Positions 3,189 through 39,646 of a stretch of 64,000 bases of DNA are shown here, piece after piece; position 1 is the first letter of the stretch; the number at the start of each line of letters is the position of its first letter. The stretch is from Acanthaster planci. Taxonomy: Eukaryota. Where the stretch lies: positions 1,205,588 through 1,269,587 of the forward strand of contig NW_019091361.1 in the NCBI RefSeq assembly GCF_001949145.1, in the 5' to 3' direction. Under the pieces are notes generated by a model. The model did not search any database. It saw nothing but the letters and a program-made list of their open reading frames with translations, and was not told the origin of the DNA. The position numbers and the translations under genes were made by a program.

Positions 3189-3434
3189 ATGCTTTACCAG
3201 TTCTGTGGGGGGGTACTCACGAGGATGACAGGTGGAATTAGGACGTTACCCCTGGGAGTACTGTTTGTACTATCCCTCCAAATTGTTTGCCTGAGCTCAT
3301 CCCCGAATGGGCCACGATCTGGGGATGGGTCCAAACCGGCAGTGTTCACCAACACGTACGCCGTCCACATCAGTGGTGGGATTGAAAAGGCCGATGAGCT
3401 CGCTGAAAAACATGGCTTTGTTAACCTAGGCAAG
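3189..3434 (+). CDS. FURIN: Furin coding exon 1: signal peptide and start of prodomain (exon begins at 3163)
   Basis: Acceptor ttctttctcctctgcag ends at 3162. ATG at 3189, second ATG at 3225 followed by hydrophobic [42 protein letters not shown]. Donor AAG|gtaaga. Confidence 0.9.
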
Positions 3435-18400: not shown

Positions 18401-21400
18401 CAGTCATTAGTGGTAGTGTGCATGTACATGTATACATTATATTTAAATGTGTTTTTCCCATGAAGCTTGACCTTTTCCCCCAAATTGCTTCAAACGTTAA
18501 TCCTGAGCCATTTCAATCTTCCTAAGTAGCCTATCTGTGCAGAATCGCCCATCAATCAGGCTAGGAACAGTCAAAACACACCCTTTTACTAAAGTAGTTC
18601 TTTTGCATTGGCTCAGCTGCTTTCGATTCTTGATGTCAAAAGGTTGGGTAAGTCTTAAATCCTAAGTTGCCTCACCCACACAACTCCTACTGTTGTCCCA
18701 GTTCAAGTGGTCAAGATTCTGCCTGTCGTCCCCCCCTCCCACTTTGTTTCCATCTTTCCAAAGACAAGGTTAGAAATGTCATGCTTTCATCTCTCTGGCA
18801 AACAGATTATTCCAGCCAGCTCAAATTTCCACTTATTCAGATCAGTGTCCGATTAACGGCATCTGATTCAGTCTTGGTTCTTGAGAGAGGAAAGCATTTT
18901 TTACCACCGTTCTGTGATAACGCCCACACAGTGAAACAAGGATCCCTCTGACTACCTGGTTTCTTTAATTTACAGAGAGCTTTCATGAAATAGAAAAAAA
19001 ATGAAAAGATACAAGTCCTTTTATACGAAGACAGTAACAGAAAAAGAAGTACAGATATTTTTGGTTTCCCCCCATAGTAATATAAACATGTTGGACTGCG
19101 TCAGTGTCTGTCCGACGTCCCATTGCAAAATGAGGCTCAAGGAAGTCATTTTCACTTATACCAAAAGAATGATTCCATTACAGTGCCCAATTGCATATAA
19201 CACTCATTTTATTATTAAGCCCCAGGCTCTCCAAACATAATTGTGGAGGAATGTTTTTAACCGTGTGTTCAATTTCTAGTCCAGATGCCGTCCGATACCT
19301 TTGTCTTCAGCTCTTTAGCTAACAAACAGATTTTAATTAAATTTTGAAGCGATGACGCCCGAATTCGTGAGGTGCTTTGTGTTGGTAGTGTTACATGTAC
19401 ATACAGATCCTCCTATGTAGTAATTAAACGCCCACTTGCAGGATATCAAGTTGACATTTTAGTTGATTGGAAGTAAAGAAATCCTGCTGTCGCGACAGAA
19501 AATTTATTTTGCATAGATTACTGTGACCTCTAAACGTGTTGGTATATGCATGCATACAGCATATCTGGTGACAGTGCCTTACAAAAGTGCCTTTCAGTTG
19601 AACATCACAGATTTTACAAGTCACCAAGAAATGGAAGGAAACAATATGATTGCAACGCATGAAACTCACAGGCATTTCAGCATTAATTTCAATTAATGAA
19701 GCTTAAAAAAAACCCAGCTGTTTATAATTATGACATGGTTTATAATTTTCCAGCTTTTTCATCCAATTTAAGCTTTTCTGTCTTTGGAAAATAAGTGAAA
19801 AAAACATGTACCTTTAGAACTTACGCTTGTACATGTATGCATGTACATTAGTTCGTTGATCCTATTAGCATTAAACAGATTTTAAAGTGCGCACACTGAA
19901 TCTGCTGCTGAAGATGACAAAGTACCTTTCTCGCTGAAATTTGTGAGGTTCAATTTTGTTTTCCAACCTAAGTTTCATCCTCTTGATGTTTACACCTCTC
20001 GGGGTGTAGAAAATGCACAAAGGTACAGTGGCCCCAGTTGGGTGTCTGTAGAACATCCTCATGCATTGTTGATGTAGGAAAGTTGTGATGGCTCCCAACA
20101 TGTGGCTCGGACTGCCTGCTCGCTACCGCAGTCTCCCCCCTTGGGTGGCCCAGTGTCAGTCAGTCAGCTTGTACTTTGGCAGCCTTTCTCAGCTGTGTTT
20201 CTTTTTAAACCCGGGTTCAAACCCTCCCCAGAGCAGTATTTGAATGGTGATACCAGGTTTGGAATTCATGTGGATTTGCCCTGTTAGAGTGATGTTTGTT
20301 TTTGTTAAAATTCAAATGAATTTTTGCAGCTTTTTTGAATTCAGACATGTAGAAGTTTTTGGGTTTTTTTCAGGGAATTTACATCAGTGTTAAAGTTTAC
20401 TGATCTCTGTTTTTTTTTTTAACCAGGAATTCAGGATGCACACATACGTGTACATGTACGTCATTTGCTTGTAGAAATACTAAAATACTGTGCAGATGGT
20501 TGAGCAGAAAATTAGTTAGGACTTTTATAATTTATGTTGGCAAAGGGCAAACCCAAATAAGAAGGACTTGACCTGTGCCCTTACATCGGTGTATATGCAT
20601 AAACATTGTATACTCTGTTTTTGTCCGAGAACTTGTTAGATTTTTGTTGTTTTGGTGTTATATTTGAATCCAGTCCTCAGACGCTTTAGATTGGAACGAG
20701 GGTACTTTGTTCGAGTGGGAATAATGCGTCTTTGAAAAAGCAAAAATTGAATGCCGCAGAAACTATGCCCTTGAGTAGCCTCTACAATATTGCTGCTGAG
20801 GTATTCCAAAAACCCTCCAGGTAGAGCCATAAATGCAAATTTAGTTGTGGTCTAGTCAGAGGAAGCACTCTTGTAATTTTGTGAGGACCCTTTGGGCGAA
20901 ATCTCTTGTTGTTTGTCCACGCTTTTTATTACTATTAGAAAGCGGTGTCCCGGTGAAGTCGATCACGTTGCTGTCAGATCAGCTGCAGCATGAAATGTGA
21001 GTTTCTTTGGCCCATGGGGAAGAGATGATTTTTATTTCTCAGTGATTCTCAGAGTCTAGTGGAACAGACTCATCTTTCAACATTAGGCTAACTTTATTTT
21101 TTTTCTTGAGTAAATTTTTAAAGTGGAAAAAAATTGCTGGAGACGGCTCAGCGTACTGCCGTATGCGGAAGGTAAAGAAAAATGAAAATGACGTTCATTT
21201 GAAAGGTTGAAGGGATTAGAGTGACAGATGTTACGCCGGAAAATGAAGGAAGTCTTGCAGGGGTAATTTTGGCTGGCAGGTTGAGAAGTAGGGAGAGGCG
21301 AGGATAAGGTTTCAGACTGCCCTGAGTGCATGCAAAGTTGATCTTGGAATGAGCTGCATATTTGCATAATGTGGGTTGACTGCATGCAGTTCTTACTGTG

Positions 21401-24400
21401 CGTTGTAGTGTGCCGTGCATAGATGTAGGTACATGTTTATATTTCTTTTCTTTTTTTCTCCAAAATTGCACTAGAAAAACATTTAATTTGAATTGGAACT
21501 GAAAAACAAGGTTTGTGTTCTGTTGGGTTTTAAGTTTCATTTATACGAAATGATCTCAGTGCTAATAGGCAAATGAATGTTTTTGTCTTTTTGGAACAGA
21601 TGTTTTGAACTGGGAACTTAAGGCTTGTTTGTGTTATTGTGTTTTGCCTACGTGCACTAGTAGTGTCAAGGCAATATTTGCTGGTTTTTTCGGGGGTAAC
21701 AATTTTGCGTTAGAAAAGTTTCCAAACTGCTATTCCTACTACACATGAATTCATTCTCATCATCCATTGGGATTACCACCATCATGCATCAAAGCAGTTC
21801 TTTCATCTCTTCACCTCACTTACTCATACCTTGAAAAGTTTTGATACTAACTTATAAATATACTAAAAGATACTTTAACATACTAACTTAACCCTAACCC
21901 CAAGGGCATCTGTAAAATTGTATTGAAATTGGAGGATTTGGGACTGTTAGGGTTAAAGTAATTGACGATACCTCCATGATGGGTTTGCGGGTTTTTTTTC
22001 AAAAATCAGTATCTTCAGTTTTTATCCATAGTCCTATCTCGCCTACATGTATGACATGTCTATCATATTTCAGCGAACAACTCCCATGTTTGCATGTTTA
22101 GATCATTATCAAAAATATGTATTTAAGTAAATGTGCAAAATTCATACTTAATATTACATAATTCAAGACCATTGGATGCATTTTCACAAAAACGTTTGTT
22201 TATTCTACCTTCACTGTAGTTTCACAATGTAGGGCCATTTGGCAGATATGAGGTAATTAAAAGGTGTTGGGCAGAATCACCGCTGTGCTGCACTGAAACC
22301 TCTCGGAACACAATGGTGTAAACAATCCCCTTTGCCATGGGATCAATGCATGCACAACTTCAGTTGAAAAAGGAAAAGACAAACTTCCAATGTACATGCA
22401 GCCATTGTATAAATTGTCAAGTACTGGGTCACGAACAAGCTTGATTTGCATGTATACCTTCAGCTCGTCCTCATACATGAACGTTACATGTATATTCTAC
22501 CATAGCACAGCTTTGCTCTTTGTTAGTGTAAATTTCAAATGCTGTACCAGTAAATTTATTGATAAAGCAAAGCTTCAACATTCACGAGTATACATTTACA
22601 AGTATCCTTCAAGAAAAAAATCCTGGATGAAGGCCCTGTCATGCGTATAAATTACAGTATGAAGATATTGTCAAGCATGCTCAATATGGAGGTATCTTTC
22701 AGTTCAAGTATACCCAGTCCCTTTCTAAGTTGCATGCTGTATCCGAAGTGGGCATAGTTGAGTATGGCTATGGCTTGTCACTGTAGCGTGTCATTGGCAA
22801 ACAGCAAAGCCATATCCATTGAATGCTCTTTTCAGACATGGCCGTAACATGTATGTATTACTTTTCCCGTCATTTCTGTCTTGGTTTTTTTTTTCACAGG
22901 CATGGTACAAGATGTGCAGGAGAAGTAGCTGCTCTGGCCAATAACAGTATATGTAGTGTAGGCATTGCCTACAATGCAAGAATTGGTGGTGAGTGAATTG
23001 ACAGTGTGTGTAATGTACATGTACAGAGAATGTGGTGTAGATAGTGATGTTGTTGTATTTTAAATAAACAGTTGTTGCCTTGTAGATATCTTGATAACGT
23101 TCTTGTTGAGAAATGGAGGCAACACCAATATTGATCAAACAAGCCCAGACCAAAACTGAAAGGATTTTTCTGGTTTTTTTTTTCTAAGTTTTAGTGTGTA
23201 TTATTGTTAATACACTTCCGTTCACCTGGGTTGGTCTTCCTAGAATCGTGCTATTTTAAGTGCTTTCTTTGCCGATTTGGCAAATGAGTCAAACTGTTGA
23301 AACATCTTTGGGGAAATTTGTCAGATTGTAAATATCATTACATTAATCTTTGCATTTATCAAAGTAAATTGTATTCAGTAAGAATGTTTTGTGGAGGGGG
23401 GGTGTTGGCCAACCGTTTCATAAAAAGTAGTGTACTTGAAATTTGCTGTATACAGCAAAGTACTGTACATGCATGTTGATTTTTCAAAAGTTTCTCAGTG
23501 GAATATGAACGAAATTTTTACCCTGCTGTGACACATCACAGATCTCCATAACCACTTGCTTGCTTGATTGTCTCGGCTGTTTTTGACAACCTACAGTATA
23601 GTTTGTATAAATGATCAGCAAAGCCCAAAGGTCTCACTCAGTGCCCATGTACACATTTGACCTTACGCTGGTAAATATGCAAACCATATCCTGCACGTTT
23701 CGCAGATACAAACAAATTGTTACACAGACTCTTGGAAACGGTTATATTACAATGTTGTGTACACTCAATTGTCCTTAGCTCAGTGGTTTTGTTAGTTTGT
23801 CAACTGTTGCCCTTTTTACAAGGCCCTCCTTTTTTTGTCGTGCTGGACAAAGAGGAGGGTCTCCCAAAATGCAGGCCAAACTGAAGTGAGCTTATCAGTG
23901 TCCTGCAGGGTTTTGGGTACTGGGTATGTACAATGTGTATGTAAATGTTCATGCAGAGAGGAATTTAATCCTGCTGTTCCAAGCTTTGCAGCCACGTGGG
24001 CTTCATGCATGTTAGACGTATTAAAAATGGGAAAAAGGAATGTTCCAGATATTTGCAAAGCATTGAACATTGTCTCAAACTGTTCCAAAACTTTCTGAAG
24101 TACCTGCAAGCACCTGTCGTCTGATTCAGGAAAATGTATTTTTCCTCTTTAGTGAAAACAATTTGTCACCCTTTCCGAGTAACTTGGCAGATTGATGAGA
24201 GGAATTTTGAAAAGCTCACATGTGTGGTGTCTGGAGTTTTGTATGAATGCTATGGTCTTGGCTGTGCACTTAAGTGGAATTAGCTGTGGTCACGACTGTT
24301 TTCATTCATGGAGACTCTTGTCGTGCCCTGAAGGGTCGTTGCAGACGTGGGCACCATGCATGTCCGTGCCGACCAAATTATACTTGGAATGGTGAAAAGG

Positions 24401-27400
24401 GAATAGAAAAGGCTACAAGTCGTGACTGGGTAAGGATGCTCCTGCTTTTATTTGAGTGAGGTGTTGCCTCATGTCACGACAGCTCCTCTGAGGTATTGTC
24501 TTGCTTTATTCATGTTTCATGCCTCATTGATTCATCAGTATCTTCACGTCATTGCCAGGCGGTTGCATCTTTACCTTTGCTCATGCACGCATGAAGCCGT
24601 TTGTGGTTCGTGAGCTTGTTTGTCGACGGATCGTTGGTGAGAATTTTTTCCCAGTGTCTAGTTTGGGGAATCTTTTCTATCATTTCCTCATGTTCATTTG
24701 TCGCTCAGAAAATTATCGTCATTAATATTGAAGGCTTGTGGGTCTCAGATTTCACCTTGTATGGTTTATTTCCATTTGACATGTTTGAGCCAATGGGCAC
24801 ACTTGGCGTACTCCACATTGTAGTTGTGTTGGGTAACCTTTAGTTTTATGGGTTTTTCTGCAAAGTACTTGTACATACCATATAAGTATAATACCTGTTT
24901 GTCCAGATGTTCTGTATCACGGAGTCTTTATACAGCAACTTGTCCAAGATGAGGAAAATTGTTTTTAGTGGAAAGCATAACTACCGGTACATTGTGTAAC
25001 TAAAACATTTTGGGGAAAGTGCGTCCATCTTAATATAGTATCAGGGTGGAGATTCAGAGAAAAAATAGTGCAATATGTTCTTTAGGTGTTTGCATGGTGG
25101 TTTAGTTGGCATTCATGGACACATTTCCCCGGATGTGAAATGACCTTGCATATGGGGGGGGGAAAGTGTCCGTGGGAGTTATCAAATGGGTCTAGTGTGA
25201 ATGGTTGCTGGGGATTTGGTGGGATAAAAATCTCCCGGATTTTCGTAGGCATTTATTCCCCGGGGATTCGCTCTGCAGTGTGAAAAGGCCTTAATATAGT
25301 TAGTAGCAGGGTGGAGTTTCAGAGAAAAAAAAAGCAGTTTGTTCTTTATGTGCGTGCAGGGTGGTTTCCCAGTAGTTGGCATACATAGACATCGGCCCTT
25401 TCCAGTGCTAAACATCAATCTTGATGTACGAGTAAATCCCTCCCTCCAAAAAACAAGGACTTTATATCCAGGAAATAGGCTTTCATGCCATTAGTGGATA
25501 CCGGCAGATGTGTGCCATGTTTTTCCCCTCAAATTGCTCCTGTGTTTGCCAATTATCAAAGACTAATGAGCTGTCATGACCTGCTTGGTCGGCACTTTGT
25601 GCAGCCAGAGAGACTCCTAGCCTTGTGCCTACGATGTGTGAATTTTAAAAAAAATCTGTGGCTAATTGTAGCGATCATTCACTGGGTGTCAAGTCCTTAT
25701 CAGAGTTCCTCAGCTTATGTACTCAGTAAAGGCAAACGGTTCACTTTTAAGTACCCACATAATCTTTCACTTGTTGTGAAGCCACGCCTACTTAAAGGTT
25801 TGCACATGGAGGTGTAAGTTCCTTCAGGCAGGTACATGTATGGAGGCCCTGAGAGCATTCTGCTGTCATCCGTTATCATATAACACTTGATGTGAGCATC
25901 CTATCAACGTGAACCAATGAAATCAAGAGTCAGTTCACTGGTACTTTGCCATATTTCCTGTCATCTTGATTTCTGTCATGATTTTAAGTGCCCATGTTGA
26001 TGTGCAAGTGCATGTGCATCTTTCTATTTCTCTGCCTTGGTGACAGTGCTATCCTAATGACTTGGACCCTACTAATTGTTTTTCAGATGCGGACATTGTC
26101 TCATCATGGCTGCATGGTCTAGTTGGTGATCTGCAATTGCCAAAGAAGCCATTTGCGAGTTGAATTTGAATAAAATCTGGTACACTGAGTTATCTCATTG
26201 CACATTAACATAACATTTGAATTATCCAGACTATAGACACTGTTGCTATACCTCGTGATTCGGGGCAAGCTTTCGCTCAGCGACCATCATCTCTGGAATG
26301 GACTGGTTCCTTTGTGCCCCTCTTATCGATTGAGAACAGTGTATTGTTGCAAGCCGTCTTTTATTTATAAGCAAAAGCTTGCCCCGAATCACGAGGTATA
26401 GTAACAGTGATTTTGGTATGGAGAATTCAAATTGTTAGGTTCACGTGAATTTAAAGAACTCAGTGTACCAGATTTGGGTCAACGTTAACTCACAAAAGGC
26501 TTGTTAATAATCGATGACTAGACCAAGTTCAAATGTTATCACATAGAAAGTTCCAATACATGTAGGTCAGACCTCAGACTGGTGTGGGGCAGGAGCTGTC
26601 ATGGAGGTTTGGAAACTGTACCAAGTTTAGAATATCCGTATATCCCGCTAAGCACATGGAATTCATAAAGTCCAGAAGGAAGGATGATGATGACATCGGC
26701 AAAATCAATTGTCAAGAAAGTAACCTGCACAAACTGTGCTACAGCATGTCTGATGAAGGGAGGATGGCACAGTTGGGTCTTCCTTTGTTCCATTCAAAAA
26801 TGAGGGGTGCGCCTGTGGCCCAATTGCCCTCTTCAAAAACTTGGAAAGAAGGGGTTTATGTATGCCTGTGTTAGAGTTTATAGTTGCATATACACGTACA
26901 GCACAAAGCAAGTTCATGGACTGATAATTGTGTCAGGGTTGTACGTGTTCTGCCATAAATGATGACCCCTTAAAATACATGTAATACAGAGTACTGAGGA
27001 ACAGATGCTGGTGGTCAGTTATTCAGGCTTGGTTAAATTATTTGACATTCCTTACAATTTGACAACAGTATTAGTAATACATAATTCCACTGCCTGGGTA
27101 CCTGGTGTTCCACGACCCCTGTACTGCCGAAAGGAACGACAGGAAAGGGGGGGAGGGGAGCCGTTAGCTGCACTTGGATCTGTTTCTATAGGCACCCATA
27201 TTTATTTCATGCAGCAGTAGAATGACATTCCTGTACAGGGCTCCCTCACCTCAGGGCATTCCATAAATCAGGTATCAGAAAAAGCCTGCTTTGTGGATCT
27301 TGCTGTTACATGTAGAGGGCCGGGGCATCTGTCTGCAGAAGTGCATATTGTCATCCACTCACAGTGTAGATGATTATAATATTGAAAGTCGTGGCAAAAT

Positions 27401-30400
27401 CATGGAAAATTGGAGAAGATATGGGTTTCCGGAAATCGAGATTATCTTAGGGCGACGTTGATGGTGTACACAACTGTATTTTTGAATTGATTAGAGAATA
27501 GTGAGAAATTTGCTGGCTGCGCAGTACTGTACATGTATATCCTTGTCAGTCTGGAGTTGTGGACATGGAATTCTTTGAGTTTATAATACCAAACCTTTCT
27601 CTGTGAATGGCATTAAATGGAAAGTCCTTGAATTTGTTTTCAGATTTTCTGTGGGAAACCTGTTCAAGGAAACTTTCCTGCTCCTGAGCACTTCTGTACT
27701 GCCGTCTAAGTTAACAGCATGCCAGACACTTTGTTTCATCCACGAACCTTATCTGAGTGTAACACTTGTTAGTTTCGTTTGGTGTCAATTAAGGTCATTA
27801 CTTATTTCTGTCATACATTTAAGTTCATTTCTCACTGTGCTCAAGTAGTGTGAAACTTCCCAACTGCACCTAAATTGAGGTTAAGAATACAACAATATGT
27901 TCAGGTAGAATTCTCCTGGGCCCTTTAATACAGAATTCACCAAACTGAGAAATTAAGCCTTTCACCAGTTACCCACAAATTTAATGGGATTATGCATGAG
28001 ATCTCAATCATTCACTTCCACAACTTGCCAAGCTATGTGTGTAGTGTGCTTACTGTATTTCAAATGCAGTCATTCATGTGTAAAAAGCAAGTCTGGTCCA
28101 AGCCAGTTTGACTCATCAGGCCGGTGTTTATCTCCGGTTTCCTTGGCATGAAAGGACTGAGAATATTTCTATTCCCCCTGGATGGGATGCCAGTCCATCA
28201 CAGGTTGCTTCCCCGGCTAATGGTGGTACCCATTTATGCTCCTGGGTGGAAAGAGGCAAGCAGGGGTGAAGTGGCTTGCCTAGGGCCACAACATACTGCC
28301 AGCTGCTGGATTCGAACCTCCAACCCTATGATTGGAAGCCACAAACCCTAACCACTTGGCCACATGCCACATTCATGTGTAGTACATGTGCATGTACATG
28401 TACATGTAGTTCCAAATATTGTGTGATGTTGTGCTTCAGTACATACATGTCTATATGTATGCATAATCATGGGACTTCCTCTGAGGTGTAATATTGCAAA
28501 TTCAAACACCATGGCACACATTTGAAGAACTGGGTGAAAACATTTAAAAAATTTCTTTTGTATTGCTGCCAACAACAAAATGTTGTAATTCCATGCAAAG
28601 GTGGGAATTGATCGTGAAATTCCAATCACATTTTATCCATAATACGTCAACAAAGCTTGTTTGTTCAGTAAATGAAAAAAGAAATATAATGTAATTGTTG
28701 TTGGTAATTCCAGAAATTAGGGGTCGAAAAGTTTGACATATTCATGTCCCTGTTACATCAAACCTTTATTGTTAGACATGGAAATATCACCGGAATTGAT
28801 TTCAAACTATTACTATTTGTTTGGCAGGTAATTTGCATTAATTCATCACTCTTGAAAATTTGAAAATGTGTTCTGAATTTACAAAATCATATGTCAGATG
28901 TGACAGAGACACACACACACACACACACAAAGAACCCCTATTTTCTGGAATTACTGTTACATATACTCCCACTATTATCTTTTGAAAAAAGAAACTTCTT
29001 TTGTGTTTGAATAAGAAAAACAATATGGCCAATTTCCATTGTTGCATGGAAACACCCCATGTTTAATGAGAGCATTCAGCAGTTTGTTTACTTTATGCAA
29101 GTATTCTGACAACTCCAGATTACATTGTGAACTTTAATGTACATTAATGACCTGTAATCAAACCATACTGTCAACTTCCAGCAACATGGAGGAAAAACAA
29201 TTTCATAGTTATTTCCACAAGTTGTGCACCTGTTCTGCTTAAAAGCTGTACAGTCTCAATACATCTTACCTGACTGCGGAATAACATGTACATGTATGCA
29301 TAGGGATGAATGGCCAGAAATACTCATTGAAGGAAGGGCAGTGGTCATATTGTATTGACTTGTACATATATCTGATTAAGTGATCAAGGGAATCAGATTA
29401 GAATTAGTGGATCTGAGGTTTAGTGATTGAGGTTTGGAATCCCAGCAGGGGACTGTAATGCTGGTCAGCAGGTGTTTTAGGGAGGGGACACGTTATGAGG
29501 GGGCACTTGCTTCCCAAAGTCTTCCCCGTCAACACTGAGGAATAATGATGAATTATTCACCTGAACAGCCTGGTGTATTCAAATTAGCAGGTAACTTCTG
29601 TGTGACTGAGTACACTGCACACTCCCCTTGGAATTTGGGAGTGACTAATCCTATCACTCACTCTCTCCTGCAAAGTACAGGTGCATGTATGTTTAGATGA
29701 TAGGTGTACAGTGCCTGTTCAGTTTAATAGGGTGACCCAGATACACTGTATATGCCAAATTGTTATATATGCATAGCACATAAAAACCTGTTCTTTTCAA
29801 AATGCCGTACCTCTTCGAATTAGTGGTCCACCTGTTTTGAGTCACTCACCCTTAAATGTTTTGGACTATTTCATGAAGTTCATGACTCCTAAAACAGACT
29901 TGGGTCCGAAACGTTCAACATGCGATAATGTTGGGCACAAATCCCTTGCCTTCCCCCACACGCAGAAGCAAAGTCATCTGGGAAATTCCCAACTTGTTGA
30001 TGTAGCTGTCCCATCAGCAGTCACCGTATGATATCCAGCCTGTAACTGGGTTGCACAAACAGCACAATGTTATTGGGATGTTTTTCGGAGAGCGGCTCTC
30101 TGCTACCATTCCCCCCCCCCCATTGGTTGTCTGGAAATCAATTGACACCCTGCGCTGAATCCCGAGTACGCACTCTACCGCTATTTATCCCCTGCTACAT
30201 CCTGCATTTACCAGAGGGAAAGGGGGTATCGATTGCCGTGTGCGGTAAAGGTCGGAAGAAGCGATAAAGCAATCAGGTTCCTCCAGGATGGGCTGCTGTG
30301 GCGGTCGGCCACATGACTCCGAGGGTGGCAATTAAAACCGAATTACTTGGCTAGTCTGTTGAATGCCGGCAGCAAGGTTCCGTAGGGTTCACCCGTGACT

Positions 30401-33400
30401 GCTGATGATACGAAATTGCTGGATCTTGATGTCGTCGGAAAAGGATGAGTGTAGTTCATTGCTATTGGAGGAAAGAAAAAATGCTGCAGTGCTGCTGATA
30501 AAGTTATACCCTGGTGCCTGTGTTAACATACTGTACGCTCCTTTCGTAACTCTGATTTGGACACTGAAAGTGGATAGGTTTATATGCAGGGGACCAATAT
30601 ATGTATGTACATGTACCACAGAGGGGTTCGAGTACCTAGATTTGCTTGTTGAAGTAAAATTCATGTTAATGTTATTACAATTCACCTTACTTTGAGCCCT
30701 GTCATCAGTCACAAATACATGTGCATGTACCCACACTTGTAGTGAATGATCTTTAAGTTTTTATCGCGTGATTCTGCTTGGTGATGGGTTCCATATGTTG
30801 GGCGTCCATAAACTGCATAGGCATGCCATGCTGACTTAATGCAGATGTACTTTGTGCATTGTTTATGTGCTGGCTCATCTTTCTGCTTGAAGCAGATCTC
30901 GTAGACCATTGGCCGAAATACCTAGCTTTATGTAGAGGGCCTGGAGCGGCATGTGCAGAGTCACTGCAGGGTCATGCATGTGTCGCATGTAATGTCTGAG
31001 GATGGGAAACAACATTGGATCAGGTTGCAAAGACAACATTGGGTCACCAGTGTCGTTCATCACGTGAATGTTTGGCTGTCAAGGGCTTCACTGGGAAAAC
31101 AGAAGTTGACAGGTGTTTTTAATACCATGACAGTTCCTGGAGCATAGTCTGTTCAGCAAGTGTACCCCAAACAAAAACCCACCATCACCTTGAGGGCTTT
31201 GTATACCCAATAACATCGCAAAATTAACCAGAAGAAAGCAGAGCTTGATGAAAAGGTTTCTGGTTGAAAAGTTTATCCATGTCTTAGAGCTCTAGACACA
31301 AAACTGGTCTGAAATTGGTGAAAGGGATTCCGTAAAAATTGTTGCGCCCCAACATGCTACAGCAGTATGAACTCAACAGATAGAGTCATAAATAAATATC
31401 TTTAACATTGTATACACACGTTAGCAATTAGCTTTATGCCTTGTGTTAGATAGAATTGTGCAACATGAAGTAACTTAATGATTCTCATCTGTTTCCAGGT
31501 TAATGTGTAATTATGTATCAGTATGAATAGATTGATAAAGGATACATCTCTGTAAATTTGTGTCATTTGTCTTTGTGTTTCCAAACAAAGTTACCTAGTT
31601 GCAAGTACATGTATGTGTACGTATGTGTGTACACGTACCGATATGTATAAGGTTTTCATAGACAGCTGCAGGTACCACTCTTGGCTCTCTCTTACCATTG
31701 GTCGTGGTTCCAGACTACCTATTATATGTTTGCATGCATGTACAATAACAGTAGAAGCTTTATTATAGTTGTGCATAACTAATATACATGCATTCTCATC
31801 TGCTGCTGCAGGAGTCCGTATGCTGGACGGCGACGTGACTGACGCGGTAGAGGCCAGATCATTAAGTCACCGGCCGGACCACGTGGATATCTACAGTGCC
31901 AGCTGGGGCCCAGATGATGACGGCAAGACTGTGGACGGCCCCGGCCCCTTGGCTAAAACGGCATTCTGCGAAGGGATCACCAAGGTACAGTGGAACGCTG
32001 CTATAACAAACACGCCAGGTCCACGCTAAATGTTCGGTATAACGGTCGTTCGGTATAGCGGAATTCACTGCCGAACATTTTGTTGCCATGTTGAATAACG
32101 TCCTCTCTTGTCTAACTGAAGTGCATTCTCTCGTGATACTATGGTTCACTGTTTTTGTGATGTTTTGCTGTTGCATTGTACCTGTTCATTATTTTGGTTT
32201 CTTTTAATTCTTAAGTTACAAACGTGATTTCAGGTTTATCCTAAAAGTCGTGAAGCTTCTGCTCAGGATCGATCTCTGATGCAAGCTGGGGCAAATCTCG
32301 GTGGCTTGTGTATCAGCAGCGCCCTCTTTAGACTAATGTTAGTGCAATGCCGCAGCGGTGCGCATGCGGCTTTCTTCCTCACCCAATCACTGGGAGTCGC
32401 AAAACCAGCGTCCAGTCAATACTGTTAGCAGATTGACAGTGTGTGCCCTGGCCGTCACTAGAAGACGACTTTGAACAAGTGCGGACCAATGTACCCAGTT
32501 TCTCAGCTAGTTGATTACAATTAACCCTCCAACAACTAGTGACTTTCCCTTCTAATCCTTGGGGAAATAATGGCCAATTGTCACTCTTCAACATAAAAAA
32601 AACGACTGGTTTTATGAAGTTGACGTTAGGGAATTACAGACGGCGACTGCATTGTGTTCGGTAGGTTTTGTGAACAAAATATTGGGAGCCAAGGACAATG
32701 TTCGATACAGCCAAATGTTCAGTATAGCGGTGTTTGGTATAGCGGTGTTCGGTCTAGCGGTGTCCCACTGTAATTACGGACCCCATGCCTAATGACCACT
32801 CATGGTCCCAAACTAATTACCAGTATGTTCATCAGGCCAGTATTTACAAGGCACATCCAGTTTCCTTGGCATGAAATGACAGAGAATTCCCCCCAGTGAG
32901 ATACCAGTCTGTCCAAAGTTGCTCCGCAGCTGAAGCCAGAACTCATTGAAAAATACTCCTGGATGGAGAGAAGCAAACAGGAGTCAAGTGGCTTGCCCAA
33001 GGCTGCGGTTTATTACCAGCAGATGGATTCAAACCCATGAATCAGTGATCTTGAGTCCAAACCCTGTCCAGGCGACATGCATGTACCCTCTAATTTTGAA
33101 CAGTAACATCTCTGTTTAATCTTAATGCTGGAGACATGCATCCTGGGACCCTTTAAAATCCTCCCCTGCGCAGGAAATCTAGCGGCACATTCGCTGCACA
33201 GTAGTCCAATTGTGTTAGTAATCCCAGCACGCACTGATAGATTTCACACCGTCACTATTAGATTGTATCCATTTGCATGCATTATCACGGTCCTGCCTGC
33301 ATGCTTCATGGGTAATTCCCCAGCAGAAGTTGGCTGGAATGAATTCCACAAAGAGGCCGTCTGCACAGATGAATGCAGATGAAAGAACCATAGACGATAT

Positions 33401-36400
33401 TTTAAGAGCAGTGCTTCCTGTTATGTTTCTGTTCTTCCCCTCCCCCGTCTTATGGTTCTCCTAAACGGCTGGGGATTCCATTTTTCCTTGCTCCATAATC
33501 CGGGCAAAAACATATTTATATTATGAGACAGGTTGTAGTGTATATGTACATGTATGTACTTCATATGATATGTGCTCAATACATACATGTAGGAAATGAT
33601 TTCATGTTTCCAGCTTGGACCAGATGACTGTGCTCTTTGCCCTGCTACAAGCTTTTCATAACGTGACATGATCATGCTGATGATGTCTCTTCTAAAGTGC
33701 CACATATATAAGGTCATCACTCAGCACAACCACAAAACCAGTTCCATTACTGCCTATTATGTCTGCTTTCTTGACCTCATGATGACTTGAGAACCATATT
33801 TTAGGAGCATTTGGAAACATGGTTATATGTAATGCACTGTACGTAAAAGTCAGATCGTCCGACCTGATGGAAGTTTAACGGTGCTTAAACATAAACATTA
33901 TTGGCCATCCAAAATAGCTTACATGGTATCCAAAGGACACCCAGACACACATTTGGCAAATGATCTTGACACAAGCACAAGGAAGAACTAAGAACATTAT
34001 AAGTCTTGTATGTTCCTTTTGACAATAGCACTTGTTGTTTGTCATGATGCAGTCATGGATGATTAGGTTTTCATTGGCACTGAAGATATTCAACACCATG
34101 CTATTTCAAGTGCAAGTGGGTCTCAGTGTGACGTGACAGTCCACAGAAAACCATCCTTTCTTGTTCTGTATTTTCCCAATGTGAGAAAAGTAATGTATGT
34201 GTCAGCAAAATACTGACCGCATGTGGGAGGAACCCCATGTTCTGCTTTGCTTTTGATCAGGCGTATTCGAAAAGATGTGCACAGATGCAAGTTACTCTTC
34301 AATGTGACTTAAAGCTGACAAAGTAACAGGCATACTCTGGGGAGTAAAGCATAGATGTACACGTACATACAAATTGTAGCTGTACCAAAAATGTAGACAG
34401 CATTTAGAAAAAAGAGTTCAAAGTGCTTCTTGTATTCAATGTAATGAAATGTCATATTTCCAATTTCCCTGCTAACACTAGGCACATGAGTGTACTGGTA
34501 ATAATATATTGTGTTTGCAGAATTCCATGAGAAACAGAATCATGAACTTGGGCCTTAAAACTTCAGCGCATGACTAAAAGAGATGAATTTGTAGAATCCA
34601 TTCTAAATCCAGCCACAGGATCTCCCACTGGTCCATCGTTTGCTCAGTGTTAAACATACTGCGTTCTGTTCCCATTTGCCACAGGGCCGTGGTGGTCTGG
34701 GTTCCATCTTCATCTGGGCTTCGGGCAATGGCGGCCGGTCCAAGGACAGCTGCAGTTGCGATGGCTACACCAATTCCATCTACACCATCTCGGTTAGCAG
34801 CGTATCGGAGAGGGGCAACATTCCCTGGTACTCGGAACCCTGTGCATCCACGATAGCCACCACCTACAGCAGTGGCAGTAGCGGTGAACAGGAAGTTGTA
34901 AGTTGGCGTGATATGAGGAGGAGAAGGTGGCAATTTCAAATTGGTTCAATGTCCCTGAAATAATGCCACATATACGCAAAGAATATTCACAGATTAAAGT
35001 TTGCCATTTCCTATTTGATGAGAGCCTGTCACATGGTTGGTTTTGACGAATGTTAAATTGCAGGCGCAGTCAATTATCAACCCCGGCCCCTATCCTGTTT
35101 TAATCATATTGGTTTAAAGATATAATACAAAACTGCTGCAGATTGCTTGCTGACTACAGTGACGTAATATACAAATCTCAAAATATGGAGGGCCTGACGT
35201 TTTGATCCTAGCAGAATCTCTCTCAAAGGCAAGGATATTGAGAAAGATTCTGCTGGGATTTTGCCTTTGAGAAAGATTCTGCCAGGATCGAAGTGTCAGG
35301 TCCTCCATATTGGTTTAAAGCACTCCGTCGCAGTTTTATTCCCTTGTTTGCTCAACATAAAGAGGAACAGTTAAAGAAAATGGCAACAAGAATCCAGCTT
35401 ATTCACAGCTCAAGAATAGTATTTCCATTGAGATTTCTTAACATGACAAGAAAACATAACGTGATGCACTTGAGGAATTCTCCAACTAGAGTTCATTGGT
35501 CCCTGTGGTGAAACCAGTACATAAACTTGTTTATTGGGTCAGATTTTATTCATGCCACACTTGAGCTGTCTGTAGGAAGAGTGACGTACTACCCCTTAAC
35601 CCTTTCGTGGCGGGATTCTTTTGACCGCAACTGCTGGGCTGTGGTATGCCCAGTATGCAAAGCTCTGTCCAGCAGCAGGCCCCATTGAACCAGCAGCTGC
35701 ATGGTGAATAGACTGTACATGTATGTGTGGTATGCACTATAAATCCTCACACAGTGGTGCGGCGTTTGCAGTCTTCAGTCATGAAGGAGTTAAACATTGT
35801 TGGCCGTTCCCTTTGGCAGATAACAACTGACCTGAATCTGGGCTGCACCGATAAACACAGCGGCACCTCGGCCTCGGCCCCGCTAGCTGCCGGCATATGT
35901 GCTCTGGCACTTCAAGCAAAGTAAGAAAAACATATCTGGTTTAATATTTCCTGTCATTTAATTGAAATCAGATGGGACGTTGCCAATATGCTGTCGGTGA
36001 TCAACATTTCAGAAATATGCAGTGTTGACCCCATCACGTTCTGAGTTGGGATGTTTGTGGCAACAGTGCAAGCTTTGCGCCCCTGAATCAAGCTTGACTT
36101 TATTCTTAGTACCAGCATGGAGGTATCAGGGTACCAGCAATATGGTCTTTTAGCCGGTACCCTGTATTTTACAGAGTGCTAGCTGAGATGCAGTACAGGC
36201 CTTTAGAAGGAAGTAAATTCAACACCTGCTTTGTTTCAATCAGTTTGCTGTCCTTTCTCCAAGACTGAAGACCTTCTTAATTTTCATTCTCCTGCTGTGT
36301 TTCCATTGCAGTCCCCATCTGACATGGAGAGATCTTCAGCACATAATTGTCTTGACATCCAGATGGGAGCACTTGAATGCACCAGACTGGATGAGCAATG

Positions 36401-39400
36401 GTGTCGGCCGTAAAGGTACCAAGTGATGTGATTGGTTGATCATTAATGATATCTTCTTTGCCAAAGACTAGCTTCCGGTGGTACCTCAAGCTGTCAAAAG
36501 TTTCATTTGGAAAGTGCTTACGAAACTCTGTGGGTGAGAAGCATAGTTGTATTGAGATCCGAAGGGCTAAAGCGCTTAACTTAAAGTATTTCCGGCACTT
36601 TATAAAACACAGTGGACTTCAGTGTGCGTCATTTATTTAAAGCGAACTTCCCAGTTGTTTAGCCTAGTTTGTGTTTTGAAGGTCATATTTCTATTAAATG
36701 CTTTCCTTGCTCAGAACTGCAGTCCTTTTTAAGAGCTAAAACTCTCTCAAGAACATTCTACAGAGTACGTGGAAAAAGTCACAATACATCCAATGATTTT
36801 TTTTCCACTGAAAAGGTCATTGAAAGCAGTTGATTCACACCAAAGTTGTTGTGCACGATCAAAGATTTGGTGTACTCATGAGTAAAAGAAGTTTCCTTGC
36901 ATTTCGCAGTGAGCCATTCCTATGGTTACGGTCTGATGGATGCTGATGCTATGGTAACTGTGGCCAAGACATGGAACCGAGTGCCTGAGCAGCATATTTG
37001 CACTGAGAATGCCTTGCCTCTACCCAAGTAAGTAACGTGTGGCAAAGGAGTCACTGTAAAGTCTACTTTGACATAGACTTGAAAATTGGCAGGCCTTTCT
37101 TTGACAAAACCATCAAAATGCTCCCAAAATTGGATGTTGTTCTCAGTACTCTGAGGTTAGTTAAGGTAGGCAGTTAACTTGACCGCAGGATCTGCCGCTT
37201 CAAGTTATCATTGTGGTTCTTTTCTCGAGTACCTCAGCTTTACCAACTGTAAGAATGTTCAGGTTGTAATGGTTGTCTCCATTTTTCAGAGGCAAATTAA
37301 GATCTTCTAAACACCGACCAAAGAAGAACATGTATGTTAGAATCCTGTTTTGACAAGAGGTGCATGGAGTGTGCTGAATCAGTCGTTCGTTAGTGCTTGA
37401 ACCTTTTTCTCCTTCCACTTCCAAGGGAAATACCTTCCAGAGGAAAGCTGGTGATCCACTTCAATACGACTGGCTGTGGTGGCACCTCCAACTATGTGGA
37501 GTACCTGGAGCATGTGCACGCCCGCCTGACGCTGAGCTTTAGCCGTCGGGGCTCACTGACCATCAAGCTGACCTCCCCACTGGGCACGGAGGCCACCCTC
37601 CTACCGGCCAGGCCCAGGGATTTCTCCAAAGAAGGGTTCACCGATTGGGACTTCATGAGCGTCCACTCCTGGGGCGAAAGCCCGGCTGGGACCTGGACCC
37701 TAGTCATCCAGAACACTGGGGAAAGATCCTACAGTGGTGAGTGCACTATGGGTTACCTGAGTTTGAGCAAGTAAGGGAGTATGAGTACTGCATGAGTACA
37801 AGTACATGGAAATTTTGCTCTTCGTGTACGAGCATGGGTAGGTTTTCATGAGCATGAATACCCCCAAAATACTTGAGTATAAAATGCTAGGATGCTGTGG
37901 TGAGTGCAGTATTCCTGTGGCTTACTCAATTTGAGCAAGCGGGGGAGTTCATGGGTGAGCATGTTGGATGTGACTTTTACTGGAGCTGATAAGCAGAGAG
38001 TGTCATTGAGCAATTTGATCAGAAGGGAAACCAGTCTCAAAGAAGAATCAAAAGATATTTAGGCTGGTAACCAGATTTTACTGAGCAGATACCGTACAGG
38101 CCTGGCAAGAGTTGGCCCCTGCTGTGTCAGTACAGCTCTGATCTTATAAGTTAGGCTCAACAGTTAGAATGCTGGATGGGTGGATCCCAGAAGTTTTCTT
38201 CTGCTAGGATTGAAACATCAGTTTACCCTTAAAAGTCATATGATAATGCATCCTTTTATTGCATCCAGTAGCAGGTGGCTGCAGCCTTGATATTTTGGTT
38301 TCTGGTAATTGCTTAAGTAAAAAAAAAAAGTTTTAGGACTGCCTGCTAAACGTCTTTCCCAATATTGTCTCATTGTTAGTTTTATTTTTTTTCATATTTT
38401 TTCTTAATTTCCACATTTATTTGTTACTCCTTACCATGCATCTTCTGCAAACTTTGAATACATTGTGGAATTTGCTCACATATTGGAGGCTTTGAAATAG
38501 AGTTTGTCTTTCAGTTCCTAAAGTTAGTTTTATTTCCTTTGTGTTATCATTTCTTTACATGTTTATTATATAGTACAAGATTTTGTGGTGTCAACCCCAA
38601 TGTCAAGTGCTGAATACTGCATTTGAAAGGTTTTTGTTTGCTTCTCAAAAGTAATCAAAAAGTGCATCAATGTCAAATCTTTCTGCATAAATTCCTTTTG
38701 ACAGTTTTGGCAGAATCATTCAAATTTATACACAAAAAAAGAGAAGATTGGACATTGATGCACTGGGAGCAATACGATGATTGCATGCTTGCCTGGTTCG
38801 GACATTTGTATAATTTCCTTCTTGCCTAGGTTCTGTTGTAAACTGCTCGCTTGTCCTATACGGCACTGCTCATGATCCACTGGCCCCCCGCCATGGTCCC
38901 TCTAACTGCTCCTCTGCCTACCGTCTGTCTGTGCATGGCACTCCGGGCCTGGGGCTGTATGGTACCTGTGTGCGCGCGGACTGCGTGCCCAGCACGTGCT
39001 GGACGTGCCCTGAGGCAAAGTCCGGTGCGTGCCCAGGCCAGTGCGGCCCCGGAGCCCCTGTACTCTGGACTCTACTATTCCACACTGCCGGCCTGTTGCT
39101 TACCACCGCTCTCCTTTGCGCCTAGGTACGCTCAAGCACTGGACATTGGTGATGTATGGCACGGAGGTGCACCCGCTGGAGGACCACATCGGCCCCAACA
39201 ACTGCCCCAAGGGGGAGTTCTTGTCCACGGATGTCCGCACTCACTCTGACGGACTGGTTGACAACACCAGTATTGTTCACACCTGCCAGCCGTGCCACTC
39301 CACTTGCGAGACATGCTTTGGGCCCAGTGAGGCCCAGTGCCTGACCTGCCCCTACAGCTACATCAAGCGGGACGTGTACTGTATAACCGTGCGGCCGTAC

Positions 39401-39646
39401 GACCAGAAGATTTTCCTGAGCATGCTGCTCATGTGCGTGGTCCTCTTGGGAATATTCCTGCTTTTCTTTCTAGCCTTGCAGGCTTACAGCCAGGGATTTT
39501 GCTCCTGGAACTACAGTGGCATGTCCAAACAGAAAGGGTGCGATTATGAATACCAGGAACTGACCAAGGATTTTGACTCTGATCCTGAGAATGAGGACTC
39601 CGTTTTGTACACTGAGAAACCTATATCCACAGTCTCCCATATTTGA
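3189..39646 (+). CDS. FURIN: Furin-like proprotein convertase (kexin/PCSK family), whole gene span; 13 coding exons per isoform; about 762 aa (TM isoform) or about 687 aa (alternative-tail isoform) from the first ATG
   Basis: Hand-spliced GT-AG exons join in frame (2289 nt for the TM isoform). Signal peptide, prodomain ending RMKR|D, catalytic ILDDG / HGTRCAGE / WASGNGG / GTSASAP, P domain, Cys-rich repeat, TM segment, YQEL plus acidic cluster. Furin versus PC5/PACE4 orthology was not tested by phylogeny. Confidence 0.9.
5030..5131 (+). CDS. FURIN: Furin coding exon 2 (prodomain)
   Basis: ccccacag|[34 protein letters not shown]|gtaagt; 102 nt, phase 0/0; internal KR secondary cleavage site. 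Confidence 0.9.
5885..6088 (-). repeat. Dispersed repeat family X, copy 1 (inverted relative to copies at 42752 and 57155)
   Basis: gtccaatccctatacac..ttgttac..caatgaccaacacaaag is the reverse complement of ctttgtgttggtcattgtt..gtaacaata..gtgtgtatagggattggac. Confidence 0.7.
6848..9242. mobile_element. Foldback-like element: about 480-bp inverted arms around a CpG-rich core; right arm carries a 116-bp unit x3
   Basis: 6848-7322 is the reverse complement of about 8770-9242. taacttc..aactggaggaacgaaat units start at 8581, 8697 and 8813. Confidence 0.8.
8570..8892 (+). repeat. Tandem repeat, 116-bp unit, about 2.8 copies
   Basis: Near-identical units at 116-nt spacing. Confidence 0.85.
9438..9542 (+). 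CDS. FURIN: Furin coding exon 3 (prodomain end, autocleavage site)
   Basis: ctgcag|[35 protein letters not shown]|gtgagg; 105 nt. Confidence 0.93.
10239..10367 (+). CDS. FURIN: Furin coding exon 4 (catalytic Asp)
   Basis: cccag|[43 protein letters not shown]|gtaagt; 129 nt. Confidence 0.95.
13025..13101 (+). CDS. FURIN: Furin coding exon 5a (mutually exclusive variant A)
   Basis: atatcag|[25 protein letters not shown](R)|gtgttg; 77 nt, phase 0/2. Confidence 0.92.
15412..15488 (+). CDS. FURIN: Furin coding exon 5b (mutually exclusive variant B)
   Basis: tgctaacaatataaag|[25 protein letters not shown](R)|gttgga; 77 nt, phase 0/2, open frame, 14/26 aa identical to exon 5a. Confidence 0.85.
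16076..16452. mobile_element. MITE family Y, copy 1 (long TIRs, TA at the termini)
   Basis: aagccatttgcgagttaaatttgaataaaatctggtac ... gtaccagattttattcaaatttaactcgcaagtgggtt. Confidence 0.8.
22900..22988 (+). CDS. FURIN: Furin coding exon 6 (catalytic His)
   Basis: ttttcacag|(R)[29 protein letters not shown](G)|gtgagt; 89 nt, phase 2/1. Confidence 0.96.
26146..26502. mobile_element. MITE family Y, copy 2, inverted relative to copy 1
   Basis: Same TIRs. Core accatcatctctggaatggactggttcctttgtgccc is the near-exact reverse complement (one mismatch) of the copy 1 core. Confidence 0.8.
28095..28370 (-). mobile_element. tRNA-derived SINE (Nin-domain-like body)
   Basis: Reverse-strand B box (ggattcgaacc) and A-box region (aaccacttggccac). 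Body ccatttatgctcctgggtgga / ccccctggatgggatgccagtccatcacaggtt / catcaggccgg resembles invertebrate SINE2 bodies as I recall them. Confidence 0.7.
31812..31984 (+). CDS. FURIN: Furin coding exon 7
   Basis: ctgcag|(G)[57 protein letters not shown]|gtacag; 173 nt. Confidence 0.96.
31988..32770. mobile_element. pogo/Tigger-type (Tc1/mariner superfamily) non-autonomous element with TA target-site duplication
   Basis: TA|cagtggaacgctgctataacaaacac ... gtgttcggtctagcggtgtcccactg|TA; subterminal tgttcggtatagcgg repeats at both ends. Confidence 0.8.
32826..33070 (-). mobile_element. Degenerate copy of the SINE at 28095
   Basis: catcaggccag..gtttccttggcatgaaa..ctcctggatggagaga..aagtggcttgccca..ggattcaaaccc is collinear with the 28095 copy. 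Confidence 0.6.
34685..34897 (+). CDS. FURIN: Furin coding exon 8 (oxyanion-hole Asn)
   Basis: ccacag|[34 protein letters not shown]...[14 protein letters not shown]|gtaagt; 213 nt. Confidence 0.96.
35820..35920 (+). CDS. FURIN: Furin coding exon 9 (catalytic Ser)
   Basis: ggcag|[33 protein letters not shown](N)|gtaaga; 101 nt. Confidence 0.96.
36312..36415 (+). CDS. FURIN: Furin coding exon 10
   Basis: ttgcag|(N)[34 protein letters not shown](V)|gtacca; 104 nt. Confidence 0.94.
36910..37027 (+). CDS. FURIN: Furin coding exon 11
   Basis: ttcgcag|(V)[38 protein letters not shown](K)|gtaagt; 118 nt. Confidence 0.94.
37426..37736 (+). CDS. FURIN: Furin coding exon 12 (P domain)
   Basis: ttccaag|(K)EIPSRG...[29 protein letters not shown]...[34 protein letters not shown](G)|gtgagt; 311 nt, phase 2/1. 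Confidence 0.94.
38830..39125 (+). CDS. FURIN: Furin alternative terminal exon A: end of P domain, Cys-rich repeat, hydrophobic C-terminus (candidate GPI signal)
   Basis: tttccttcttgcctag| phase 1, open for 97 codons: (G)[26 protein letters not shown]...STCWTC...[21 protein letters not shown]. Paralogous to the start of terminal exon B. Confidence 0.8.
39126..39646 (+). CDS. FURIN: Furin terminal exon B: end of P domain, Cys-rich repeat, TM helix, cytosolic tail
   Basis: ctcctttgcgcctag|(G)[12 protein letters not shown]...[22 protein letters not shown]...[23 protein letters not shown]...[19 protein letters not shown]...HI*. YxxL motif plus acidic Ser cluster are typical of furin tails. Confidence 0.93.

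Follow-up and report, generated by a model that had tools for sequence, protein, structure and literature searches.

An alternative terminal coding segment in the Acanthaster planci furin gene that may encode a tail-less convertase

The furin locus and its possible second ending

We analysed a 64,000-nt stretch of the genome of the starfish Acanthaster planci (contig NW_019091361.1, positions 1,205,588 to 1,269,587; hereafter the window), which holds a furin gene with a second possible ending. Thirteen exons (3189-39646) rebuild RefSeq XP_022105565.1 and XP_022105574.1 exactly, all 11 introns separating shared coding exons 1-12 are GT-AG, and furin-like isoform X1 of A. planci matches the exon at 37427-37735 with 100% identity. 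The shared exons carry motifs of a furin-type (S8B) convertase (ILDDG 178, RHGTRC 220, ASGNGG 319, GTSASAP 393 and RMKR 128), and these catalytic motifs, the oxyanion N and the R-X-K-R prodomain site mark the predicted product as a furin-type proprotein convertase. By eye, exon 1 encodes a hydrophobic N-terminal stretch, the same as in the canonical form. The two RefSeq forms differ solely in an internal pair of mutually exclusive exons and end alike in the canonical last exon, which encodes YQEL and an acidic stretch.

An earlier sequence-only reading had placed a second phase-1 acceptor, ending at 38829 and opening 97 codons, upstream of the canonical one, and both coordinates and sequence bear it out. 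The AG lies at 38828-38829 and the canonical acceptor ends at 39125, a spacing of 296 nt; the donor phase at 37736 sets a 97-codon frame (38832-39122) that closes at TAG (39123-39125). Joined to exons 1-12, the segment yields the anticipated 687-aa form with no internal stop, and this form lacks the transmembrane (TM) segment and YxxL/acidic cytosolic tail of the canonical one. Because the TAG supplies the canonical acceptor AG, a single terminal exon with alternative 3' splice sites accounts for both endings. The proposed duplicated terminal exon survives as a copy with 14/35 identity, but no intron divides the copies and they are not separate exons. In the alternative form, the canonical coding exon would become 3' untranslated region (UTR). 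From 38830, neither AATAAA nor ATTAAA occurs until 41624, so a common 3' end is likely for the two forms, and nonsense-mediated decay (NMD) of the alternative one is unlikely. A second frame is open for 135 codons at 38842-39246, probably a by-product of high guanine-cytosine (GC) content.

The mutually exclusive exons, annotated as RefSeq X1/X2, are each 77 nt long and lie in the catalytic domain (13025-13101 and 15412-15488, plus strand). In the second, the acidic residue two before N-R-H, which we take to be D191 of the furin S2 pocket, is changed from E to I. A similar exon pair with I, L or M is present in Asterias, Lytechinus, Apostichopus and Antedon, and the second variant of Ptychodera keeps E. 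Which of these exons is used may alter substrate preference, and the choice could be paired with the alternative ending.

Table 1. Features of the A. planci furin gene and its alternative ending (window coordinates).
Feature	Position	Strand	Basis
Furin coding exons 1-12, common to both endings: putative signal peptide, prodomain up to RMKR, catalytic D/H/N/S motifs, most of P domain	3189..37736	+	Exon join identical to RefSeq; tblastn map
Penultimate exon (P domain) with the phase-1 donor common to both endings	37426..37736	+	Pfam PF01483, E 9e-24; furin PDB matches; junction reads
Upstream alternative acceptor: pyrimidine tract and AG, like the canonical acceptor region	38815..38829	+	Sequence; side-by-side DNA; junction unlisted in 8 RNA runs
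Alternative terminal coding segment, 97 codons and TAG, GC 0.63	38830..39125	+	Sequence; kinship to crinoid isoforms P0019 and P0134
Last P-domain strand, ending LVLYGT	38832..38867	+	Ungapped match to canonical and vertebrate furin tails; crinoid model strand E560-572
Cys cluster (segment C26, C46, C51, C56, C59, C67, C71), shortened canonical furin-like repeat	38907..39044	+	Alignment; predicted hairpin 30-37/46-53
S-G-A, candidate omega triad, 33-residue propeptide	39021..39029	+	Rule scan (candidate)
G-Q-C, second omega candidate, 28-residue propeptide	39036..39044	+	Rule scan (candidate)
Uncharged hydrophobic C-terminal run, 21 residues, no cytosolic tail	39060..39122	+	Mean Kyte-Doolittle (KD) value 1.81; predicted helix 76-96
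TAG stop codon of the alternative ending, supplying the canonical acceptor AG	39123..39125	+	Sequence
Canonical last coding exon, with P-domain strand, a single Cys-rich repeat, TM, YQEL and acidic tail	39126..39646	+	100% to RefSeq; 16 junction reads, 5 contigs

Origin, constraint and use of the alternative segment

The first 35 residues of the segment align without gaps to the start of the canonical exon, and recomputing their identity returned the same 14/35 that had been claimed. The ungapped BLOSUM62 score for residues 2-27 is 58, against maxima of 17 for any other plus-strand AG in the window (n=3576) and 16 for shuffles of the segment (n=20000), so the duplication is real. The DNA upstream of both AGs is similar, which fits a tandem copy of acceptor and exon start.

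Across 26 codons, segment and canonical exon are identical at 14 first, 18 second and 8 third positions; identity at silent sites is close to random, and the frame and motif have lasted. Taken by itself, this pattern could also come from neutral decay of one copy, as would be the case if the Acanthaster segment were what is left, silent or in decay, of an exon duplicated long ago or independently of the crinoid one, with a hydrophobic end that is a by-product of reading through the canonical pyrimidine tract. Decay should have brought indels and lower GC, however, so the 35 gapless codons and 63% GC argue against it. That exon-like GC sets the segment apart from all 590 intron windows of the gene, none of which reaches 60%, and the frame, acceptor, LYGT strand and seven cysteines have persisted despite the near-random third positions. 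The length of the open reading frame (ORF) is weak evidence: 13% of same-composition shuffles of the segment stay open, a figure that suits a relic, although among 1677 intronic AGs in the gene just 2 are followed by 97 open codons in phase 1.

We dropped two further arguments. One was CpG retention: observed/expected CpG is 0.14 in the adjacent intron but 0.45 in the introns of the gene overall, and 7 of 590 windows have at least 18 CpG. The other was that the segment is without a 7-8 residue insertion of starfish canonical tails, which is ambiguous, as another alignment pairs the cysteines differently.

RNA data came from 3 raw runs (18-19% of each read) and 5 contig runs (presumed RNA), with a junction listed at 3 reads or a contig. 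The comparison of splice junctions that the sequence-only reading had put forward as its check tells, as far as these runs reach, against the alternative ending: 37736^38830 was listed in none of the 8 runs, the canonical 37736^39126 had 7, 6 and 3 reads (16 in total) across all 3 raw runs, and each of the 5 contig runs has contigs that skip the segment and continue at 39126. In the depth table the segment itself holds about 2 reads in X22, about 1 in X23 and 0 in X24, and 13 intron bins are at zero depth; if the segment reads are treated as two random fragments, the chance of both landing there is about 0.03. This hints at rare use of the alternative end, at a few percent of canonical depth. 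The same reads, about 3, could equally be explained by 3'-end pre-mRNA, and a relic would sit well with this, with the unlisted junction and with the absence of the form from RefSeq. Elsewhere in the last intron, a 35-nt stretch (37777-37811) attracts numerous RNA reads and contigs whose flanks are foreign to the locus; it is a short repeat expressed from other loci, outside the furin transcript.

Relatives were sought with query residues 100-600, taking the best 120 of 2973 matches and examining cluster members for 22 representatives. Two tail-less crinoid isoforms emerged, XP_033124087.1 (Anneissia japonica X2, 646 aa) and XP_071954112.1 (Antedon mediterranea X3, 633 aa), and in both crinoid species with annotated isoform pairs the divergence from the canonical partner falls at the same codon as in Acanthaster. 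They surfaced only through shared domains and not through the alternative peptide, which by itself had no match among 276 candidates of 171-2000 aa and one among cluster representatives, an unrelated repetitive protein; the segment matched no Pfam family and no PDB sequence, and had no usable Atlas match. RefSeq X isoforms are usually backed by RNA-seq, and the crinoid forms are automatic annotations. Their alternative ends share the first Cys pair with the segment and also have small residues, a spacer and a hydrophobic run, with no acidic tail. We take these isoforms, compared at the protein level, to support both a duplicated exon and a tail-less product.

Residues S1, D15 and R20 are common to all three alternative tails and absent from all 10 echinoderm canonical tails, a sharing that tells against a relic; no column is private to the Acanthaster segment and two starfish canonical tails. 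Column 15 is D in both hemichordate canonical tails, so D15 may be ancestral, and it still points to an early duplication. The best ungapped 26-residue match of the segment is Antedon X3 (14/26, score 68), compared with 11/26 and a score of 58 for its own canonical exon. Trees were built on 46, 26 and 34 columns, the latter two with hemichordate rows omitted; in all three trees holding them, the three alternative tails fall on one side of a branch (support 92/92, 90/91 and 94/94), and a starfish-only duplication is rejected on 46 columns (p-AU 0.014).

Several results pull the other way. A starfish-only duplication is not rejected on 26 columns (0.19), on 34 columns (0.077) or with crinoid alternative rows omitted (0.17), no branch is starred in any tree, and long-branch warnings accompany two of the three. 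Whole-segment local scores are 83-93 to canonical tails and 57-68 to crinoid alternative tails, because the crinoid ends lack the Cys cluster. No tail-less ending is annotated in the clusters examined for Asterias, Diadema, Lytechinus, Apostichopus, Holothuria, Ptychodera and Glandiceps, and the A. planci RefSeq cluster consists of two isoforms that are both canonical at the C-terminal end. On balance, the alignments favour, without proving, a single old origin of the three alternative tails. We consider it very probable that the alternative C-terminus has a maintained function, and it is probably old, selected and rarely used; that the Acanthaster segment is a relic we consider unlikely.

Tail-less hydrophobic endings also occur beyond echinoderms. 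Of 188 convertases at least 560 aa long, 10 end in 20 residues with a mean KD of at least 1.0: both crinoid forms, Gigantopelta X2, Octopus vulgaris X2, three proteins from beetles, P0026, P0064 and P0155. P0064 has S-G-A-C-P upstream of its hydrophobic run, and P0112, from a beetle, has the look of a truncated true TM. Others may reflect read-through in the models, bias and redundancy affect the set, and any kinship of these hydrophobic endings to the echinoderm exon is conjectural; a wider invertebrate pattern is a lead only. Mollusc and nemertean furin models (P0028, P0046, P0051, P0084, P0113 and relatives) often carry the final P-domain strand motif twice in tandem, which suggests that duplication and alternative splicing have recurred at this exon boundary.

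From the P-domain strand to the hydrophobic end

The first 12 residues of the segment correspond to the last P-domain strand, and LVLYGTA matches vertebrate furin tails. By motif and model, the P domain of the alternative form would be complete, including its final LxLYGT strand; the earlier proposal that an LxxYGT strand completes the domain agrees with the motif in the segment, with PF01483 upstream and with a strand (560-572) in a crinoid isoform model. That model matches furin at E 8e-53 but has a mean predicted local distance difference test (pLDDT) of 63 and a poorly modelled catalytic domain, and was guided by an alignment rich in canonical rows. The strand of the segment also departs from type, with Cys where Trp is usual and an N-C-S sequon. 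Downstream, seven Cys form a shortened version of the canonical eight-Cys repeat. The Cys repeat of its own that had been ascribed to the segment is thus present as a related cluster, but its spacing is altered, the last canonical Cys is missing and no Pfam family recognizes it. A model of the segment (predicted template modelling score, pTM, 0.40) has a hairpin, followed by residues 65-74 as a linker of low confidence and by a closing helix over 76-96, and a fold search with it found no match at E 0.001.

The last 21 residues carry no charge. Their mean KD is 1.81, and the best 19-residue window reaches 1.77, compared with 3.13 for the canonical TM and with 1.96 and 1.75 for the crinoid alternative ends. 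The alternative form thus ends in a moderately hydrophobic run with no cytosolic tail, as a glycosylphosphatidylinositol (GPI) signal does. A 2012 paper of Galian et al. (cited in PMC10216265) reportedly ties marginal hydrophobicity to efficient GPI addition. Among frames upstream of 14 acceptors in the gene, 0 of 42 (21 open) were as hydrophobic as the segment end; one acceptor frame reached KD 1.75 by chance, which lessens the force of this comparison. Likewise, of the last 21 codons about 13 fall within the pyrimidine tract of the canonical acceptor, which favours hydrophobic codons. This overlap suits a relic whose end reads through the acceptor region, but the first 8 residues of the run, upstream of those 13 codons, are equally hydrophobic (KD 1.70).

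GPI signals place small residues at omega and omega+2 about 10 residues before the hydrophobic run, and the propeptide usually spans 17-31 residues. Small-residue triads lie upstream of the run in all three alternative tails, and common omega residues listed in one source include S and G (PMC9520029 Table S2). The geometry in Acanthaster is less favourable. S-G-A is the sole textbook triad, sits between C59 and C67 and lies 33 residues from the end, in keeping with the long spacing already remarked on in the sequence-only reading; the flanking cysteines likely belong to the folded cluster, and nearer small residues are spoiled by Pro at omega+1 or omega+2. G-Q-C leaves a 28-residue propeptide with a weaker omega+2, and cleavage there would remove only C71, whose canonical partner is missing, if the pairings follow the known repeat topology. 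Candidates in the crinoids are N-D-G at 27 residues in Antedon, which is well spaced, and S-N-G-G at 37-38 or N-F-S at 29 in Anneissia. Given a functional ending, we put GPI anchoring at somewhat better than even; overall, the sequence features leave it plausible and about evenly balanced.

The form could be real and selected without a GPI swap, as a weak tail-less membrane anchor or as a secreted or readily shed furin released through translocon slippage. The conservation evidence applies to it equally, the omega geometry is off-centre (33 in Acanthaster, 37-38 for S-N-G-G in Anneissia, 27 in Antedon) and the 21-residue Acanthaster run models as a confident helix. Secreted C-terminal variants are described for PC5-A (PMC2121096), and furin is reported to be shed (PMC6682551). 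We hold this alternative to be possible but less likely than not, as no charged stop-transfer residues follow the run, its hydrophobicity is well under that of the true TM of the gene, and small-residue triads recur in all three tails.

The explanation we lean towards, at close to but not quite an even chance, is an old and selected alternative 3' splice site, common with crinoids, that yields a 687-aa tail-less furin predicted to be GPI-anchored at the cell surface. In some cell type or stage, the spliceosome would join 37736 to 38830, and the first 12 codons would complete the P domain and let the enzyme fold and mature. The C-terminal run would then be cleaved in the endoplasmic reticulum, at S64, or at G69 if the Cys cluster must stay whole, and GPI would take its place. 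Without YxxL and acidic signals, the enzyme would escape trans-Golgi network (TGN) retrieval. With the canonical coding exon acting as 3' UTR, NMD would not be expected. More tentatively, echinoderms may have kept, since before the crinoid/starfish split, a splice switch from TGN furin to a GPI-anchored surface convertase, and the gastropod, octopus, beetle and other invertebrate endings would suggest a recurrent, overlooked invertebrate feature absent in vertebrates.

Elsewhere in the window, an ORF fragment on the minus strand (54353-54084) is likely an exon of a convergent neighbouring gene, with a motif that presumably reflects gamma-tubulin complex component 4. A 163-codon plus-strand ORF (59788-60276) has three hydrophobic stretches and by eye resembles the C-terminal half of a rhodopsin-type G-protein-coupled receptor. 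Assembly gaps amount to 1021 N bases (4037-4246 and other runs), none near the alternative ending.

Comparison with known convertases and membrane anchors

Where a convertase resides decides which substrates it cuts. If the proposed form is real, it is an isoform missing from the A. planci RefSeq annotation, and a furin held by GPI would cleave ligands and proteins of the matrix on the outside of the cell, from which phospholipases could free it; vertebrates reach this site with shed furin or secreted convertases. It could also offer a testable route to localized maturation of TGF-beta-family and other precursors in echinoderm development or regeneration. The earlier statement that no GPI-anchored animal furin isoform was known stands for the open-access literature searched, where we found no report of one or of an echinoderm tail-less isoform and the phrase 'GPI-anchored furin' occurs in 0 papers; much of the older convertase literature is in subscription journals outside this search.

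Drosophila Dfur1 and C. elegans bli-4 are convertase genes whose isoforms have several C-termini, and together with PC5-A/PC5-B they resemble the Acanthaster furin in drawing several spliced C-termini from one gene. Their forms are soluble or transmembrane, and we know of none described as GPI-anchored. Splice switches between TM and GPI forms occur in NCAM-120/140, CD58 and the CEACAM family, in which a last-exon swap changes the membrane anchor; the logic is that of the proposed furin switch, but these are not subtilisin-family convertases. The Pneumocystis PRT1 kexin-like proteases do belong to the kexin family and have a predicted GPI signal, but they form a fungal multigene family rather than a splice isoform. 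GPI-anchored proteases listed in one compilation include MMP17, MMP25 and testisin (PMC9520029 Table S2). None of these three is a subtilisin-family convertase.

Closest to the Acanthaster form are Anneissia X2 and Antedon X3, with the same codon switch, S1/D15/R20, first Cys pair and tail-less hydrophobic end; both are shorter and lack the extra Cys cluster of the Acanthaster segment. Vertebrate furin (PCSK3; PDB 1p8j, 4omc) has the same catalytic and P domains, and its Cys-rich repeat, TM, YxxL and acidic tail are matched by the canonical Acanthaster form. In PC5, alternative C-termini spliced from one convertase gene are reported to change sorting (PMC2121096). Vertebrate furin is described as getting outside by TGN-surface cycling or shedding (PMC6682551), whereas the alternative acceptor in Acanthaster would remove TM and tail at the RNA level. 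Alternative convertase C-termini are thus already familiar; what the Acanthaster ending would add is the type of anchor and its apparent age.

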